A DNA stretch of 64,000 nt from Microthyrium microscopicum (lineage: Eukaryota): assembly GCA_010405405.1 (NCBI GenBank), contig MU004239.1:868001-932000 (forward strand), in the 5' to 3' direction. The translations under genes were made by a program, and so were the position numbers. The notes under the pieces are model-generated. The model saw only the letters and a list, made by a program, of their open reading frames with translations. It had not been told where the DNA came from and did no database searches. This document shows positions 1,992-12,968 of the stretch, in pieces. The first letter of the stretch is position 1. Each line of letters starts with the position of its first letter.

Positions 1992-2681
1992 ATTCGAGCC
2001 GCAGGGAACCGCAGGCGAGATCCGTTATGATTTCGCACACATGAGAGTTGCAGGCATGATATTGCATACATGAAAGCGTGGAAGGAAGAGACTGGTGCAC
2101 TTTTCTTCAATTCGATTCATTTACTCTCCTTAATCTATTTAGGTACCTATTATTGTCTATTTTGCACGCAAATATTTAGTGTTTATATGAGTAGATCTGG
2201 AAGCAAGCGTGGCTTAGATCCCTATGATGAGAATGAAATGTTTTAGCCCCCAGAATTCAATTGTTCTCTTCGTGTATGCGTGCGTGGCTGAGCAAGGGAG
2301 CGTCTTTATGAAAGGTTTCTCAAATCTGGTCTTTTGCCCTGTCTTTCTACAGGTAAAGCGAGACAGTCATTACAGCCTAATGATTCTCAAATCCTTCCTG
2401 ACATTTCAATATAACCAAGGCGAAAATCTTTGGGTAGAACCAGGGATGTTTGCCACGCGAATCCTTCCGGTTTATGCCTCGAATCCTATTTTCGTAAGGA
2501 CGCATCCTGTCTATAGGGCTCAATATATATTGCTGAACCTTCAAATCCAAAGGACGCGGCATCAATAAGAAGAGCCAGCGTCAGCACGCGATGGCCATGT
2601 AAACTAGATAGTACACACATTCACTTGATATTCACTCGCTAAGATTATTCACTCACAGCTACACTAAAGGAGTACTACAAC

Positions 2682-3014
2682 ATGAAATTTTTACTACTCT
2701 CTGCTCTCACTTCGCTGGTCGCGAGTGCGCCAATACAGAATATAAGCTCAACAGGTGAGATCATTTTTCGGGCGATTGTTGTGATATAAAAGTCTTCCAC
2801 TAACAACATTCAAGACCAAGGCGCTTCGATTCAAGCAACTACTACGGACGAATCACTGGCTGGAAATGTTCCACCTCCTCTTCCCAAACAACCATTTCCA
2901 ATTCCAAGTCCTGATCCCTACGGAGGCAATGGTGGGACTTCTCATTGTGACCCACCTATTACACAGTCATGCGCGCCATTCAGACATGATCCAAAGAGGG
3001 GGCCGTATCGCTGA
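2682..3014 (+). CDS. Small secreted Pro-rich protein, ~90 aa, 2 exons (2682-2754, 2815-3014); not in the ORF track
   Basis: ATG in acaacATG context and signal peptide MKFLLLSALTSLVASAP. Phase-1 intron gtgaga...ctaac...caag. Exon 2 is open (DQGASIQ...VPPPLPKQPFPIPSPDPYGG..HCDPPITQSCAPFRHDPKRGPYR*). Confidence 0.75.
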
Positions 3015-3643
3015 AGTCGGACCAAGGACTGCTATGGAAACAATGGGATATGATGAACTTCGATTTAGCGCTTAAACTGTGTGAGGACTGCAGGATTTAT
3101 ATGGCGTTGTATTGAAGTCATATCAGCTATGTTTGTAGCTTCAAACCTAAGCCGGTTGGTGTTAAAGCTGCACAGAACTTTGACTATTAAACGACGCGCT
3201 TTATTCTAGTGCTAGATTTCCCATCATACTTGAGAAACGACCTGAATTCTACTTCTACTATAATTACTCATGAAGATGAAGTTCCCCTTGTGTAATAGAA
3301 CCTGGCAGACATGAGCAGCAAAACCGGCAGCTATTCGCCAGCGATAACATCCATGCGTTGCTAGGCCTAAAATGAAAGACGAGGATTTAATTTATTTCAT
3401 GCTGGTCAATAACTTAGGTTTTGACAGTTCTAAAAGTAGCCACCGCCCTGTCACTCACAAATTGGAAGGATTCAGACAGCCTGAGAGCTAGAATCCTCTT
3501 ATTATTGTTAACCTACATAGATTTTCATGGAAATCTCCTCAATAATTCTGCTTATTATCATTGATGGGGTTTAATTCTAGAATTTGAATGTACAGTAACA
3601 ACAATCCATTTCATGATGAACTTTAACCTGACCTAAATCATTC

Positions 3644-6583
3644 ATGGAGCCAATTACCATCAAAGTATGTCTGCGCGCAAAAGCTGAACACCACACCTCG
3701 AGTGCTCCCATCGATCTCGTTGCCTAAGCATGATTCCATCATGGAGTGTCATAGTAGGCATCGTAGTTGCTGGGAGTTTACTACTTGGTCTGCTCACTAG
3801 TTGAGAGCACTCAAAGTTAAAGAAATCACTCACATCTTTCAGGGCTCGCACTTCTTTTACGAACAATCAGGCCTGCAGTTCTTCGTTCGTGGCATCAAGT
3901 ATCAGTACAATCCACCACTGGACCGAAAAGGGGCCAAGTCTACGCCAGCGAGTACGATTCCCTACGACTTCAACCCTCCAGTGTGGCGACACTGCTTGAT
4001 AATCTGCTGAATATGCTGTCGAAGGGATACTAGTCGCTTCCAATTCAGCAAAGTAGCAACAGCTCACGCACTTTGTTGGCTGGCACCGCCTTTGATGTTT
4101 CAACACTAACTTCACAATAGACATCTTGCAAGCCGACCCACTGATAGACATAAAGGATTGCGAACGAGATATACCGTTTCTCAAGGAACTAGGCATAAAT
4201 ACTATCCTAGTAGAGTACATAAGGCCAGACCCAGAAACAGACCATTCGCCGTGCATGAATGCGTTTCAAAAAGCTGGGATATATGTAGTTGTCCACCTAG
4301 AAGCTTCCAACGAGTCAATCAACCAGCTACAAAACTGGGATCGAGAGCTGAAGGTAAGTAAAAAGCATTATTTCCACTCATATCGTGCTTGCATCGGCGA
4401 TTTCCAGTGCATTTGATGGCTCACATCGCATCTGATGGCTCACATAGCATTCGATGCTCTCCTTATTGTGTCATTGCGAGGGTGGCTCTCTCAGAGCATC
4501 TCAGCCTTGATATTTTTACACCTATGCTAACAAAAGTTAGGCCCGATGGCTCAGAGTTGTCGATAACATGGCCCCATTCGTTAACGTGTTGGGTTTTTTG
4601 TCTCCCAGTTCCTATATCACATATGCCTTTCTCAAGGTAAGACATCTGGTGGAAGCATCTTGTTTTCTGCATGATAGCCAACGCATCTGGTGGCTCCCTC
4701 GCATCACATGGCTGCCATAAAGTGCTTTGGCCTATTGGATTCCATATTTCATTCGCATACTAATGAACCTTAGGCAGCTATCAGAGACGTCAAAAAATAC
4801 ATCATTACCAAAAGTTATCGTCAAGTTCCTATTATATCAGACGGGTGGGTCCGAGGGAAAGACACTTTACAGCCTTTGAATTGTGGTAAGTTCTTATACA
4901 TAATATATCTTTTGGCGCTACCAGCGCCTGTTGTGGATTCCAGCGCACTCCATGGACTCATGACGTGCCATGAGATATCGCGCTGGTAGGACTTCTACGT
5001 CTTTCCAATGCGTGTGATCTTTGTACTGATCAGTGATCACTTGTATGGGTGATGTTCAACTAATCATTTTTAGGTGACAAGAACAGCTCAATAGATGTCC
5101 TATTTACTCACCTTGAGAAATGCTCAGATGATACGGTTACTCAACAATCGATTGCGCTTACGAGGAAAACATTGGGCGACTATCCTTCCCCAGTAGTATA
5201 TATGGCTCAGAATTGCGGATCAACAAACAGCGTTGGCTCATTGCATAACATATTCGACTCAAACGCAACTAGCTTTCTATCTGGAGCCATCATGTCTTCA
5301 TATTTTGGAGACTTTATCAGTAAAACACCAGGTATAATGGATGTGGAAGGATATAATGCTACCAGAGGTCCACAATATGCAACTCTTTCCAAAGAAATTG
5401 CATCAGTCCAACCAAGTCCTACTTCGATAGCACAATACACTCCAACAAACACCATACCCAGTGTATGCGAGTCACACTTTCCAGTGGCATACACTAGTAA
5501 CGTAACGCCCTCTGGCGCTGTTGCTACAATGGATTTCCACATAGCAACAAGTCTCCCACCAACGCCAAATCGACGACTTTGTGAATGCATGATGGCATCG
5601 CTAGAATGCGTTGCAAGTCAGCAATATCGGCCACAGCCTTTCTGGATTGACGCACCCCGACTGAGCCGCAACTATCCCGTACCGCAAGAGAACGCGCTGA
5701 AAGAGGGCATATGCAAGGAGAATCCTAGCTGGTGTTTGGGTAGCGGCTCAGATCCGTCTGTAGGACAGTGGGGATCGTTCGGCGGGTGTAATGCCACAGA
5801 GCGCGGTTCCTGGATATTGAATCGGGCCTTCAAGGCAAAGAACAGCGATGCTGGGCTTTGCCAGAGTTTGAACGGAACCATTATTCGGTCTACTGTCCAA
5901 GATCCACCGAATGACTGCAAAATCATGCTTGCTCAGGCAGGTCCGCAGGGTACTGGCGAAGTCACTTATAGCGCGCCTGAGCTCTCTCGTGAGAAGCGAC
6001 CGGGCGACATTGGGGATGGTAAGATATCCCTTTACTCGCTTTTCCTAATGATTACTATATCCTCCATAACACTCGGTGGCTTCCATCGCATTCGATGGCT
6101 AGCATCGTATATTGTGGGAGTTTACCGCAAAATGGTGTCTGATTCCTTTTTTATTATTTTTGCTCTAGATATCACTGACACATTCCAGGCGCTACACCAT
6201 CTGGGAGTCGCATAATCCCCATGGTAGTCGTTCCTGTGGTATTACTACTGTTCATAATTGGTTTACTGCTGTTCTATCTACGGTGGCGCAGAAATAACAT
6301 GAAGAAACAAGATGAAGTCTTCGAGAAAGCAGAGCTTCCAGGAGATGCTGTGGCTGCTAAGGCCAGTTCGTCACCGCTAACGCTGAACACGACTGAGCTA
6401 AGTGTGACGGGAAACGAGCTGAACGAGGCTGATCCGGACACTGCACTTGTCGAGCTTAGTGGTAGGGATATACAGGAACTGGACGGCGTATGGAACGAGA
6501 TGAAGTATGATGTGGCAGAAACGGTGTATGTTGAATTGCCCACCGAGTTCAATACCAGAGGAAAGAGCTCTCAGCTTAGTTAA
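3644..6583 (+). CDS. GH72 (Gas/Gel beta-1,3-glucanosyltransferase)-like protein with X8/CBM43-like Cys-rich domain, one TM helix and cytoplasmic tail; probably catalytically inactive; 7 exons: 3644-3664, 3843-3951, 4121-4353, 4541-4636, 4774-4885, 5074-6018, 6189-6583 (~636 aa)
   Basis: GH72 motifs PITIKGSHFFY..G.QFFVRGIKYQ, DPLID..DCERDIPFLKELGIN, DHSPCM..FQKAGIYV, AAIRDVKKYI..K.YRQVPI, LNCG. X8-like LPPTPNRRLCECMMASLECV...WGSFGGC. All splice phases are compatible and the exons sum to 1911 nt with no internal stop. Confidence 0.85.
4396..4452 (+). repeat. Three tandem ~19-nt units in GH72-like intron 3 (GGCGATTTCCAGTGCATTT / GATGGCTCACATCGCATCT / GATGGCTCACATAGCATTC); related units in introns 2, 4, 5 and 6
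   Basis: Read directly from the sequence. Related copies lie at 4075-4093, 4670-4718, 4932-4959 and 6075-6112. Confidence 0.75.
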
Positions 6584-6865: not shown

Positions 6866-7915
6866 TCAGATTGCTCTCTTTGGAAAGGAACGAAGTATCT
6901 CGGTAGTCCTTCGGGCCAGTGGCCGCAGCTTCGATAGCCAATTACTTCTTTCAATGAATTCGCCATTTGCCATAGCTTGCTCAGATCGGAGCAATTTTGC
7001 TCTTACAACTCGCTTTTGCATGACTTTCCTCTTCGATCTCATCTTTTTGTAGAGAATGTCTTTGCTCTTGTGACGTGATTTATCATCTTTATCGGCACCT
7101 TTCTCATTGTTCGTGAGTTTTGTGAACATGACTTGCCGGAGTGAATCTGCCGAACAAGGAGTGATAGTGATATCTTGCAAGATGTTATCCGGCTTCTTGA
7201 TGAGAGCCTCTTCACTCTCGTAGTTTGCATCATCGTCCATATCGACATCATTGTCATTGTCTGCGAGTTTGGCGAATATATCTTGAAGCATTGAATGTGC
7301 TGAACAAGGGGTGATCGTGACATCTTGCAATGTCAAACCTGGCCAATGTTCAATCATCATAGATTGGACAGATCTTCTGAGGACAGTGGCAAGCGTGTCT
7401 GCTCTCTCATTCCCCTCAATGCCCTCATGTGCAGGCACCCATCGAAGCTCAACGATGATACCAAGATCATAGAGAATGTTAGCGTACTTGACCAAGCTAT
7501 TCCTCAGTTCCGGCCTCGAAAAGTAGGTGAACGTCTCTCTTCTCTTTAGGCCTTCTAGTAGACCAAGGCAGTCGCTGAGTATGATGAGATGGTCGAAGTC
7601 CTCACTCTTGTTACAAGCAACGCGGAATGCTTCCTGGATTGCGATCATCTCCGCCTCCTCGGAATATCTTGCGCCGCACTTGAGGGTGTTGAGTGTGATA
7701 AGCTCCGTCCATGTTTTGGATGACCAGTCGAGATATGTCACTGCGGAGGTAACTAGTCTATCTGCTGCCGCTGGAGAGCCTGGCGCTGATCCATCCACCC
7801 AAATGACCAGTCTCCGTTCGATTATGCCTTCGTTGTATATATCGTTGGCAATTTGCATTGCTATTGATCTCTTGTGGGTGATAATGCCCTCCGGAAATGG
7901 ATACAAGGACTCCAT
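6866..7915 (-). CDS. Standalone RNase H1-like protein (non-LTR-retrotransposon-type RNase H domain) with duplicated C-terminal segment and basic tail
   Basis: Intronless 349-aa ORF with RNase H motifs VIWVDGS, EAEMIAIQEA, IILSDC and LRWVPAHEGIEGNERADTLA, so the D-E-D-D acidic set and the His loop are intact. Confidence 0.8.
   Translation of the reverse strand: MESLYPFPEGIITHKRSIAMQIANDIYNEGIIERRLVIWVDGSAPGSPAAADRLVTSAVTYLDWSSKTWTELITLNTLKCGARYSEEAEMIAIQEAFRVACNKSEDFDHLIILSDCLGLLEGLKRRETFTYFSRPELRNSLVKYANILYDLGIIVELRWVPAHEGIEGNERADTLATVLRRSVQSMMIEHWPGLTLQDVTITPCSAHSMLQDIFAKLADNDNDVDMDDDANYESEEALIKKPDNILQDITITPCSADSLRQVMFTKLTNNEKGADKDDKSRHKSKDILYKKMRSKRKVMQKRVVRAKLLRSEQAMANGEFIERSNWLSKLRPLARRTTEILRSFPKRAI
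7095..7335. repeat. Diverged direct duplication with 150-bp period inside the RNase H ORF
   Basis: tcattgttcgtgagttttgtgaacatg...gaacaaggagtgatagtgatatcttgcaa (~7104-7180) versus tcattgtctgcgagtttggcgaatata...gaacaaggggtgatcgtgacatcttgcaa (~7254-7330). In protein this reads LQDVTITPCSAHSM versus LQDITITPCSADSL. Confidence 0.8.
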
Positions 7916-8726
7916 GGCGCTTTGTGGGTATCATGTGAAAAATTTGAGGTAATTGAGCGACTGGGGCTATTACGCTATAGCGAGAGAAAACGATAATGTA
8001 GGAATACTTTGGGTAGGATGATGGTCCAGGTATTTGAGTCTGGATATACCTATAGAATGGCTACCTGTAGGTACACGACCTTTCGACAACGTGTGGTCGC
8101 TCTTTCCTAAAAGAGTTCTCTTATCAGCCTTTCTTGTCTCTCTGCGAATCCAGTCGTGACCTAAAATAGTAAGAGCGCGGCAAGTGACGAGATTGATTTA
8201 TTCCACACGAAAGAAGGAAGATCGCGCCAGTACTGAGGCGTCGAAAGAGGAGATATACCAGCAGCCACTGCCTAAGTTTGACGGATTGACATGCTTCCCA
8301 GTGGCATTAATCAAATGTTCGAATGAAAATAACATTCCCAATCTTAGGCAACTAATTTGGCTTCTTCTTATTCGAAAGGTCAACACTGGTACAAGTAAAG
8401 AATTGTGGTTATCATGGAACGCTACTGGATTAAGGGGCCATATGATACATCGGAATTTTGATACTTAGTGGGCACTCGCTCATTAGGAAATTAAGAAAGT
8501 TACGGTACGTTAGTACTAGTAGCTAGATGTATACTTGGTTTAGGACATTCTCTTTCAAAAGGCCATATCCTCTGGCTTTGATACCTGACTATCTTGCCGC
8601 CTCTCTCATGTTCCTATTTTGAATCTTTCCAGAGTGCCACTGGGATTCTTGACTGCAGCCACTGATCCTCATCAAAGCACTTCTCTATACTCAAGACTAC
8701 TTACTGATAATCACTATCAGGGGAAA

Positions 8727-10312: not shown

Positions 10313-12968
10313 CTATTGATGTTGCTGCTGCGACATCTGTTGCTGACATATTTGTTGGTGTTGGTGTTGCGGTATCTGTTGGTTTGCAGATTTCGAGAGG
10401 CTTTCAGTAGTCTCATAGTGCATCGAAAGACCGATCCCCGAATCATCAAGTTCCAGATCAGTCTTCGGCTCATCATCTAGTTGGCGCATGAGTTGAGCCA
10501 TGCTGTCTTTTGACATTTGGGGCGCGCTCGTCGGTGGGTAGATGGGCATGCTTTGGTGTTGTTGTCCCATTTGTGCGTGTGCCATGTGCGATACGTTGGA
10601 CACCGGCCCACCTTGGAATCCCGCTTGGCCATTGCCAAAGCCGGCGCCGCCCGTCGTCGGGCCACCGAGATCAGATGGCGTGCTGCGGTACGAATTGGTG
10701 CCGGAGGGTCCGCCGGACATGCCGCCGTTGATGCCGGCGGCGAAACCAGAGTGTCCATTGGGCATGCTATCTTGCCGCACGGGGTGGTAGGGTGCCTCGC
10801 GTTCAAGGAAACCGCCGACGTGGACCAGCCAGAGAAGGAGTTCGTCGACGAAGCATTTTGTGAAGAGCCACGGAAGATAGCTCTCTCCAGACTGCATGAC
10901 CACATCGCGGACAATATAGCTCGTGACGCCCTGGACGTAGTGTACGAGATTTTGCGCGCTCACTGTTGGGAAGCGCTGTTTGAGGTCTTCCAAAAATCGG
11001 CAGATCTTCTCGAATTCAAAAGCAGCAGGTTGGGGTTGCGCGTTTTGTGTGTATGCTGCAATCTCGTAATGTGTGCCGACTTCGAGACCATGATCGATGG
11101 TCAGTGGGAGAAGGAGTTCGCGCATATCGTGCGTGAGGAGACGATACACCTCCTCGTCATATCCACAGTCCGGCAGGAAGGCGTTCATTATGCATTTGGG
11201 CTGCACATAACGCACCATCTCCTTCCACATGCGGTCGCGATTCGCTTGGTCGATGAGGACGATGCCGGCGTTGTGGGCGACATTGTTGACTCGCAGCATG
11301 CGATTCAGCAGTTGGCTGAAGATGGTTGCGGGCTCAAGTTTAGCGTCCAGTACGTGTTTTGGTAGTGCTGCAAAGGTTTTTGAGATGTGGCCATCCAGAA
11401 GCTGGGAAACCGTGTCGCAGAATTTAGAGACTTTTGCTGGGAGCACTTGGAGGGAGAGGGGTGCGATGGTTTTAATCATGGCTTGATACATTGTATAGTC
11501 GCATTCTTTGACCCATGGCGCTAGGTTTGGATGGTTGAGAAGTTTTTGAACGGGTACTGTCAACGTTCCGGAGAATTGCGTAAATAGACGAAAAAACATT
11601 TTCTCTTTGCAGAAGCGCACACAATCGACGAGAGAGGTTACATGACTGTGATAGAGAGTTGTTAACGCGTTGGCTGCGTCTATATCGGTTTTTGGTGGCG
11701 TGTATTGGAATATATCCGGTAATATTATATCCTCTGGTGGTTGATGTACAAATACGCGTGTTGTGGGGAATTTGAGGCGGCTATTGTAGGATCGGGTGCC
11801 GGTTGCTCGATGAGGTGCGTAGACAGGCTCCTGGGGAGAAGGAAATACTCGTCCTTCTACTTCCGGTAATGCAGGAGCTGTGGTTGTTGCTGGAGAACCC
11901 ATGGATTGATCGTCTCCTGGGATGACTGCTGAATCTGGTTCAAATCTAGGAATATTGCTAAACAAGTCAGATTATGGGATATATGAGATATTGTTAACTT
12001 ACTCTAGGGCCAACGAGTTGCGATAAGAATGTGTTTGACTTGGTTTGCGACCTTGGTTTGCACCAGATTCTGTCATGTCTTCGGCAAGTGACAGATCAAC
12101 GTAATGATACTTTGATTCCCCTCGTACTCCCAGTCTTCGAGTTTGAATATCTGGGAAGATGACGCGCACCAGTTTACCAAAGGAAGCTGGGTTCAGAGGT
12201 TGTAGATGATGTTTGGCGCATCTTCCAGCATATTGTGTGTGGACTCGAGTTCTTGGTACAGATCCTTTGGCTTTTATCAAATTACGTTCCAACCTGTGAT
12301 GTGTTAGTATAAATCATTGGTTCAAGTCTAAAGGCTTACCAAAGCATGGCAAAAAGCTGTTTTGTCTTTTCCGCAGATGAAGTCTTTTCGTTGGCTTGTA
12401 CTTCGGCAGCCAAATCGTCCAAAGATCGCCCTCGATTATTTTGAAGCATGGCTTTTAGCTCACTTTCGTTTGGACCTGTTGATTGGCGAGGTTTTCGAGC
12501 TTCGAGTTCGATATGTTGCATTCCGTTTTGCATTCCATTTTGCATGATATGTTGTTGAGGATGACCAGTGAAACTATACTCCATCTGGTTGTTGTCGTAA
12601 GGAATTGGCTGAGCGGTCTGGAAATATCCTGTTTGTGGCTCACGGGGTACGTGATGTTGAGGATGAACGGGTAGTTGATTGTTGTGGTTTACATGTACGT
12701 CCACAGGCGTTTGCGAAAGTTCTCGCGAATTTTCTTCTTGAAGCATTCTAGCCATTCCAGATGTATCCATGGCCAGAAGATGCGACTCGTCTATTTGATG
12801 CGACAGTTGAGATTGCGGAACAGTTCTCGGCGGCGGATAGGGAGCTCCGGGTTCTTGCATGGACATGCGCGATTGATATGAATGCAGACTAGCAGTAGAA
12901 TTTGATGAATGGGGTCTCACGGGAGCAGCGGTGTTTGACCGTGACCGCGAACGGCGTTGAGCGGGCAT
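10313..12968 (-). CDS. RFX1: RFX winged-helix transcription factor (Crt1/Sak1/CpcR1 family); 3 coding exons ~12968-12340, 12293-12003, 11957-10313
   Basis: RFX DNA-binding domain (FAMLWLERN...SVPRTRV..QY..RC...LQPLNPASFGKLVRVIFPDIQTRRLGVRGESKYHY) followed by the fungal RFX C-terminal/dimerisation region. Confidence 0.92.

Follow-up and report, generated by a model that had tools for sequence, protein, structure and literature searches.

A GH72/X8 protein without the catalytic glutamates and with a predicted membrane helix and tail in Microthyrium microscopicum, and the subfamily to which it belongs

In the part of the PHR review considered here (PMC5753161), proteins of glycoside hydrolase family 72 (GH72) are presented as enzymes held by a glycosylphosphatidylinositol (GPI) anchor and carrying a GH72 domain with two essential glutamates. 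The GH72+ enzymes (Gas1/Gas2 of S. cerevisiae, Gel4 of A. fumigatus, and Phr1/Phr2 of C. albicans) are the closest described systems to the gene reported here, which lies on the forward strand, at positions 3644-6583, of a stretch of 64,000 nucleotides from Microthyrium microscopicum (contig MU004239.1; this whole stretch is called the window below). M. microscopicum is a Dothideomycete of the order Microthyriales. The predicted product shares with the GH72+ enzymes the same barrel, the linker, the cysteine-rich X8/CBM43 module, and the disulfide cysteines. Unlike them, it has neither of the glutamates, has lost the neighbouring Asn and the Arg, and keeps little of the Tyr triad. It also has a predicted transmembrane helix with a tail of about 100 residues and no GPI signal, and the barrel of its subfamily evolves much faster than theirs.

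The only GH72 proteins mentioned as inactive or anomalous in that part of the review (PMC5753161) are Gas3, Phr3p, and Pga5p. Like the protein described here, Gas3p (S. cerevisiae) and Phr3p/Pga5p (C. albicans) are GH72 members without demonstrated activity, but they are described as secreted or of the GPI type and are not reported to have a transmembrane helix and tail. Cell-wall integrity sensors of the Wsc/Mid2 type have a WSC or Mid2 domain, a mannosylated stalk rich in Ser/Thr, and a Rom2-binding tail. The Wsc1/Mid2-type sensors are described in the review as type I glycoproteins (PMC5753161), and the protein studied here is likewise predicted to span the membrane once, its ectodomain facing the wall and its short tail lying in the cytoplasm. 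It differs from these sensors in lacking a WSC domain and a long Ser/Thr-rich stalk (its stalk, residues 486-513, is short and not Ser/Thr-rich); WSC, Mid2, and SKG6 gave no Pfam match at E values up to 1, and its tail motifs are unrelated to those of the sensors as far as tested.

An X8 module displayed on the cell surface with no enzymatic function is known from plant callose-binding proteins (PDCB) and the C-terminal domain of Ole e 9. In these proteins it binds beta-1,3-glucan, as X8/CBM43 does generally. However, they are small, GPI-anchored or secreted, and have no GH72-like barrel, transmembrane helix, or tail. Enzyme folds kept as binding scaffolds after the loss of catalysis are known from the neuroligins (cholinesterase fold) and the GH18 chi-lectins, and in neuroligins the dead-enzyme fold is followed by a transmembrane helix and a cytoplasmic tail; the folds and organisms are unrelated, and the comparison is an analogy only. 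A literature search at the level of listings and the beginnings of abstracts found no description of a transmembrane-anchored or catalytically dead GH72 protein.

Gene structure, GH72 fold, and active site

A preliminary description of this locus had proposed an intact open reading frame (ORF) spliced across six introns. The splice model and the identity to an annotated protein bear this out. The spliced frame comprises 1911 nt (636 codons and a stop) without interruption. All six introns begin with GT and end with AG, their lengths range from 137 to 188 nt, and most have a CTRAY-like branch site close to the 3′ end. The 636-residue translation is identical, letter for letter, to database protein P0001, the hypothetical protein BT63DRAFT_458535 of M. 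microscopicum. From a sequencing run (X1), which is RNA only by guess, two short contigs fell on the window (3000-3087 and 5577-5739), with zero splice joints. Two antisense ORFs within the gene (3867-4265 and 5207-5617) gave no Pfam match. The gene and its ectodomain are composed as follows.

3644-6583, forward strand: seven-exon gene (exons 3644-3664, 3843-3951, 4121-4353, 4541-4636, 4774-4885, 5074-6018, and 6189-6583)
3644-3664, forward strand: exon 1, M-EPITIK, the first barrel beta-strand (modelled strand at residues 4-7; the first 10-residue block has a mean predicted local distance difference test score, pLDDT, of 96)
3665-3842, forward strand: intron 1 of the splice model, 178 nt, phase 0, between K7 and G8
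3843-5408, forward strand: remainder of the GH72-like (beta/alpha)8 barrel, residues 8-302, exons 2-6 (Pfam PF03198, Foldseek)
3952-4120, 4354-4540, 4637-4773, and 4886-5073, forward strand: introns 2-5 of the splice model, all within the barrel
4198-4218, forward strand: NTILVEY, replacing N-T-[IL]-R-V-Y with loss of the Arg (alignments)
4583-4615, forward strand: NVLGFLSPSSY, degenerate acid/base motif with Ser145 (4610-4612) at the Glu column (HMMER alignments)
5190-5219, forward strand: PVVYMAQNCG, degenerate nucleophile motif with Ala235 (5205-5207) at the Glu column (HMMER alignments)
5409-5567, forward strand: linker, residues 303-355, with the conserved Cys322 (family alignment)
5568-5957, forward strand: X8/CBM43-like module, residues 356-485 (weak Pfam match, cysteine columns, AlphaFold2 helices at 395-479)
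5637-5681, forward strand: disordered insert of 15 residues in the X8-like module, residues 379-393 (pLDDT below 50)
6019-6188, forward strand: intron 6, 170 nt, GTAAGA..CAG, phase 1 on both sides, dividing the ectodomain exon from the exon for helix and tail

The Pfam profile PF03198 (Glyco_hydro_72) matched residues 1-302 along positions 9-313 of 314 (E = 7.9e-46; 157.2 bits against a cut-off of 25.9). The closest solved structures found with HMMER were Gel4 of A. fumigatus (8pe1, E = 1.3e-49) and Gas2 of S. cerevisiae (2w61, 5fih, and 2w62, E = 5e-34). An AlphaFold2 model of the 636-residue protein, built from an alignment of 54 sequences, reached a mean pLDDT of 79. The barrel and the X8 module were modelled with confidence, and values below 50 were confined to residues 379-393, 503-517, and 547-636. 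When this model was used as a Foldseek query, Gel4 (8pe1_B) was matched at E = 2e-35 with template modelling (TM) scores of 0.84-0.86 by target and the Gas2 entries with TM scores of 0.77-0.83; both ranked far above other barrels of clan GH-A. The alignment to Gel4 spanned 506 columns, as compared to a chain of 451 residues. In the X8 module, the helices at 395-479 were modelled at block pLDDT values of 88-97, and the eight X8 cysteines (C360, C362, C369, C404, C411, C429, C453, and C472) are all kept.

The proposed alignment to Gas and Gel proteins and the structural model thus confirm a GH72 fold, and at the columns of the catalytic glutamates the alignment places other residues. In active GH72 enzymes, the acid/base Glu belongs to a GNE motif and the nucleophile to (S/A)E(Y/F)GC. 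HMMER paired NVLGFLSPSSY with NVIGFFAGNEV (Gel4), PSPVVYMAQNC with PVPAFFSEYGC, and NTILVEY with NTLRVY (Gas2). The earlier reading of these motifs as replaced was right, as both Glu columns hold Ser145 and Ala235, respectively, in the alignments to Gel4 and Gas2. The loop behind the acid/base motif is about 7 residues shorter, and alignment confidence is lower there. A small shift of the alignment cannot restore a carboxylate, however, because Asp and Glu are absent from residues 141-150 and from residues 227-241. In NTILVEY, the Tyr column is occupied by Glu75, or by Tyr76 if the alignment is shifted by one residue. The Tyr triad, an Asn, and an Arg are named in the part of the review considered here as surrounding the GH72 catalytic centre (PMC5753161). 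At these positions Arg is changed to Leu73, Tyr to Glu75, Asn to His203, Tyr to Glu205, and Tyr to Ser265, and only Tyr267 is retained. Judged by these substitutions, the retaining mechanism of GH72, which depends on two Glu, is not available to the protein.

Membrane helix, tail, and a conserved subfamily

The C-terminal part of the protein comprises the following features.

6212-6280, forward strand: predicted transmembrane helix IIPMVVVPVVLLLFIIGLLLFYL, residues 514-536 (Kyte-Doolittle; AlphaFold2 helix at 519-544)
6281-6310, forward strand: basic juxtamembrane patch RWRRNNMKKQ (sequence, family comparison)
6311-6583, forward strand: acidic disordered tail up to the stop codon (tail alignment, pLDDT below 50 at 547-636, shuffle test)
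6317-6340, forward strand: tail motif 1, VFEKAELP (tail alignment)
6464-6544, forward strand: tail motif 2, IQELDGVWNE..VELPT (tail alignment)

A transmembrane helix of about 20 residues with a positive patch, a tail of about 95 residues with repeated EL motifs, and a departure from the usual GPI anchoring had all been proposed before, and each is recovered here. Kyte-Doolittle hydropathy (19-residue window) reached 3.11 at residues 514-536 and 1.23 in the next-best window of the whole protein, making this the sole hydrophobic segment; RWRRNNMKK follows it directly. By the hydropathy proxy used, the hydrophilic, acidic extreme C-terminus excludes a GPI signal, and helix and tail stand in its place. 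The tail (about 100 residues, net charge -8) contains six EL dipeptides. This number was matched in just 3 of 20000 shuffles of the tail, so that the repeat goes beyond chance. Pfam returned only sub-threshold matches of transmembrane type for the tail (e.g. DUF3377 and Psg1). The ectodomain contains 14 cysteines and 7 N-x-S/T sequons. These cysteines and sequons, the positive-inside charges, and the signal peptides of relatives suggest that the protein would adopt a type I topology, its ectodomain turned to the wall and its tail cytoplasmic.

Relatives of the same architecture were sought, as the preliminary description had recommended. Of 1.84 billion cluster representatives searched with HMMER, 867 matched at E values up to 0.001, and the best 150 of these were used; a word-based search gave 126 matches at E values up to 1e-10; pooled, both searches yielded 263 proteins. 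A hydrophobic helix with at least 40 residues after it was found in 88 of the 263, and the models of 31 of those 88 cover the barrel (all or most of it), the X8 module, the helix, and the tail. Hence at least 31 clusters at 50% identity show this architecture, i.e. a GH72-like domain with X8, transmembrane helix, and tail. These 31 transmembrane-tail proteins were compared with a canonical set of 46 GH72+ proteins, drawn by picking every other one from 119.

Both catalytic glutamates are present in 46/46 canonical relatives. Among the 31 transmembrane-tail proteins, 26 have Glu at neither column, three at the nucleophile column only, and two (P0127 and P0186) at both. A hydrophobic extreme C-terminus, again by the hydropathy proxy, was found in 46/46 canonical proteins as opposed to 0/31 of the subfamily. 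The first 12 residues past the helix include 2-8 Lys or Arg in 31/31 proteins (4-8 in 30/31), the rest of the tail is net-negative in 30/31, and Cys322 of the linker is retained in 30/31. The canonical invariants retained in the subfamily are structural and comprise the cysteines (29-31 among those present), N70, N136, K153, R157, D158, R169, P230, and G261 (P0001 numbering). Active-site residues are mostly lost, the retained counts in P0014 numbering being 9/29 for R90, 4/29 for Y92, 2/27 for N160, 2/25 for E161, 1/31 for N229, 4/30 for Y231, 5/29 for E262, and 7/31 for Y294. In a FastTree phylogeny, a split with support 1.0 separated the 31 transmembrane-tail proteins from the 46 canonical ones; the tree is unrooted, so the order of events cannot be read from it.

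The tail motifs FEKAELP and ELPTxxNEPVEL are conserved in alignments of 13 and 17 relatives, and the pattern of the second in relatives is I-x-E-[LM]-P-T-x-x-N-E-P-V-E-L. A profile of 13 tails matched 15 proteins, all of them X8 or GH72+X8 proteins and none of any other architecture; the short matches with X8 only begin mid-domain and look like partial models. An Atlas search with the tail returned scores of 0.84 or less, which serve as leads only. The nearest Atlas entry by features was a 60-member Ascomycota cluster (score 0.91).

Within this subfamily, P0001 matches 66 of the 75 columns that are conserved to at least 80% among the other 30 members. Its nine mismatches, mostly conservative, are near the median of a range from 3 to 22. 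All 14 ectodomain cysteines are kept, and the tail aligns at both motifs (VFEKAELP on FEKAELP, and IQELDGVWNE..VELP with a ten-residue insert). The GAKxGIG motif ahead of the helix is replaced. As read from the 75 conserved columns and the maintained tail motifs, the subfamily is a conserved pseudo-enzyme and not a product of decay. That simple decay does not account for the gene had already been argued from its open frame, and the subfamily with the same losses and tail motifs, together with the 66 matching columns and 14 cysteines, supports that argument.

Named members come from four fungal classes, namely Dothideomycetes, Arthoniomycetes, and Leotiomycetes plus that of one Aspergillus. Lophiotrema nucula has five subfamily clusters, and Dendryphion nanum and Amniculicola lignicola have two each. 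Further members are found in Zopfia, Massariosphaeria, Polyplosphaeria, Lojkania, Lentithecium, Trematosphaeria, Karstenula, Macrophomina, Tothia, and Rhexocercosporidium, as well as in (i) Coniocarpon cinnabarinum, an Arthoniomycete; (ii) Cadophora gregata, a Leotiomycete; and (iii) Aspergillus karnatakaensis. In the databases they carry automatic names (hypothetical protein, CBM43 protein, or glucanosyltransferase). No encoding locus turned up in metagenomes scanned with P0002 and with P0155. We also noted that the two A. lignicola proteins, P0135 and P0150, have consecutive accessions and are encoded on the same contig of 1,079,093 bp, which suggests a tandem pair.

A second kind of transmembrane-anchored GH72 protein was observed alongside this subfamily. 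Six such proteins (P0032, P0163, P0174, P0200, P0160, and P0144) are without X8 and have their helix at about residue 400-450. Both catalytic glutamates are present in P0032, P0163, P0174, and P0200, and only the nucleophile in P0160 and P0144. Their tails are 79-197 residues long, several with the same K-P-E-L and EL-x repeats, and the named examples are from Patellaria atrata and Aaosphaeria arxii.

A tether or sensor role and its alternatives

In our reading, this intact gene encodes a catalytically dead GH72+ (Gas/Gel/Phr) member of a conserved Pezizomycotina subfamily, and we consider it somewhat probable (roughly 0.55) that the protein acts as a tether or sensor between wall and cytoplasm. 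The GPI signal has been replaced by a single-pass transmembrane helix, a basic patch, and an acidic, disordered, motif-bearing tail. The barrel has lost its catalytic machinery, with the fold core, the disulfides, and X8 being kept. The ectodomain would be a non-enzymatic module that docks inside the beta-1,3-glucan layer or on its surface, probably via X8 or a new surface of its own; for any glucan binding these are likelier than the cleft, because the old cleft residues are not conserved. The tail motifs would recruit cytoplasmic partners, and the protein would couple the wall to the cell interior. We infer the sensor or glucan-binding role from these features. An earlier proposal that the enzyme was repurposed as a non-catalytic membrane-spanning protein stands as to the loss of catalysis and the helix and tail, but the gene model contains no signal peptide.

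Several observations weigh against a tether or sensor. First, constraint on the barrel is loose, since its mean pairwise identity is 0.31 in the subfamily vs 0.57 among canonical proteins. Second, the residues lining the cleft (Arg, Tyr triad, and Asn) are lost across the subfamily, which weakens the case for glucan binding in the cleft. Third, P0032, P0163, and P0200 have both glutamates and similar EL-rich tails; the tail is hence not specific to a non-catalytic, receptor-like role and may, by this comparison, serve anchoring or trafficking rather than signalling, a reading to be taken seriously. Fourth, the Pfam X8 profile (PF07983) scored only 18.5 bits on residues 403-454, under its cut-off of 25.7. 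This cut-off was reached by 19 of 20 relatives scanned, P0150 being narrowly under it with 25.4 bits. The domain had previously been called X8/CBM43-like, an assignment that the eight cysteines and the modelled helices uphold and the Pfam score does not. Finally, the model starts with M-EPITIKG, which corresponds to the mature N-terminus of relatives, and thus has no signal peptide. A type I receptor needs one, and its absence from the model, missed in the preliminary description, is the main caveat.

This copy can function only if a 5′ exon absent from the gene model supplies a signal peptide. Secretory-pathway folding of the ectodomain is favoured by its conserved cysteines and sequons, and a signal-peptide-like segment directly precedes (D/E)PIxIK in 17 of the 31 subfamily relatives. 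In M. microscopicum, an in-frame TGA (3629-3631) lies 12 nt upstream of the ATG, and any upstream exon must join at the AG 3648-3649, as there is no AG between the TGA and the Glu codon. A scan of every ATG-to-GT phase-0 peptide in window positions 2000-3840 left a single candidate.

3527-3568, forward strand: sole candidate signal-peptide exon, MEISSIILLIIIDG, in an intergenic stretch of 630 bp (unverified)

Its donor (GTTTAA) and acceptor (GAG, 3647-3649) are both poor, which again counts against the role proposed above; a CTGAC is situated 18 nt ahead of the acceptor. Models of 12 of the 31 subfamily proteins likewise begin at or after the mature N-terminus. In six of these 12, a Q stands directly before GS.FFY, which fits a CAG acceptor read through at the position of intron 1. 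From these models, absence of the first exon seems to be a frequent annotation artefact, arising at a conserved phase-0 intron. Two other signal-peptide-like segments were rejected. The ORF at 3730-3804 (forward strand) within intron 1, MIPSWSVIVGIVVAGSLLLGLLTS*, has no intron of usable length that would bring it in frame with exon 2 and is probably due to chance. A good signal peptide at 2682 is part of a separate small two-exon gene ending at 3014.

Among the alternatives, it is possible, though on the unlikely side, that the protein is a regulator or scaffold working through protein contacts, e.g. to glucan synthase, to an active Gel enzyme, or to another protein of the wall. In this case, its tail would serve only anchoring, polarised trafficking, or endocytosis and would convey no wall signal. 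The family-wide loss of sugar-contacting cleft residues would be expected under such a role, the EL-rich tails of the Glu-keeping proteins fit a generic anchoring or sorting module, and a disordered, acidic tail agrees with it as well. The X8 module, on the other hand, keeps all its cysteines, and its mean pairwise identity falls only from 0.40 in canonical proteins to 0.32 in the subfamily while that of the barrel falls much further; X8/CBM43 is a binder of beta-1,3-glucan, and a scaffold has no known partner.

A stronger form of the sensor reading, which we regard as speculative and rather unlikely, is that of a new class of fungal cell-surface receptor derived from a dead enzyme of wall remodelling. 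The condition of the beta-1,3-glucan layer would be sensed by its GH72/X8 ectodomain and relayed to a cytoplasmic pathway by the tail motifs (FEKAELP, E-hydrophobic-x-G repeats, and ELPTxxNEPVEL), in parallel to Wsc/Mid2. If so, the expansion in Pleosporales would reflect diversified wall sensing.

It is improbable that this copy is non-functional, having lost its 5′ signal-peptide end and entered early decay within an otherwise functional family. The start at the mature N-terminus behind a stop codon, the non-consensus splice sites of the sole candidate exon, the X8 score and 15-residue insert, the replaced GAKxGIG motif, and an ORF of retroelement type 283 bp downstream could all be taken in this sense. 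A frame of 636 codons has nevertheless stayed open across six canonical introns, the conserved columns, cysteines, and both tail motifs are largely or fully kept, and the 12 relatives' models with the same start, six of them bearing the read-through mark, point to an artefact that is often one of annotation. Still less credible, indeed very improbable, is an enzyme with relocated catalysis using Glu75 and Glu205 as a new acid pair: both fall in the former active-site cleft on canonical Tyr-triad columns, i.e. on positions that surround the catalytic pair (triad role in the part of PMC5753161 considered here), but these columns are unconserved over the 31 proteins (S5 Y4 D4 I3 E2 and P4 R4 Y4 S2 A2), an acid is absent from both of them in P0002, the closest relative, and the supporting Asn and Arg are also lost.

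Surroundings of the gene and implications

The following features surround the gene in the window.

592-1742 and beyond, forward strand: pepsin-type aspartic protease gene, upstream (PF00026, E = 1.5e-33)
2682-3014, forward strand: small two-exon gene with a 60-nt intron (2755-2814), encoding a secreted-looking protein of about 91 residues with the signal peptide MKFLLLSALTSLVASA
6866-7930, reverse strand: ORF of 354 codons with an RNase H domain (PF00075, E = 2.8e-08), 283 bp from the stop codon of the GH72-like gene
10313-11971, reverse strand: RFX-type regulator, downstream (BCD_RFX, E = 2.9e-20)

Nothing in these neighbouring genes bears on the function of the GH72-like gene. The second exon of the small gene is Pro-rich and contains Cys, and its product gave no Pfam match; the first contig of run X1 ends at 3087, just beyond the stop codon of this gene. 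The RNase H ORF looks like a retroelement-derived fragment. Its C-terminal half contains two copies of about 20 residues, spaced by about 45 residues (LQDVTITPCSAHSMLQDIFAKL and LQDITITPCSADSLRQVMFTKL).

Introns of the GH72-like gene are 137-188 nt long, as compared to 60 nt in the neighbouring gene. Introns 3, 4, and 6 (4354-4540, 4637-4773, and 6019-6188) share the short core CATCGCATYYGATGGCT, which at up to 2 mismatches has 4 matches in the whole window, all inside these three introns, against 0.06 expected. A blastn comparison among the introns detected no similarity longer than this short motif. Going by the motif, the shared core may be left over from introner-like elements.

GH72 enzymes play a central part in building the fungal wall. 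A conserved branch of the family with several paralogues per genome, in which catalysis was lost and a helix and tail were gained, suggests a connection between the glucan layer and the inside of the cell for which we found no description. In terms of annotation, many models without a signal-peptide exon are explained by a conserved phase-0 intron close behind the first strand, and automatic names such as '1,3-beta-glucanosyltransferase', as well as counts of carbohydrate-active enzymes (CAZymes), overstate the number of enzymes in Dothideomycetes genomes. The conserved tail motifs offer direct handles for experiments.

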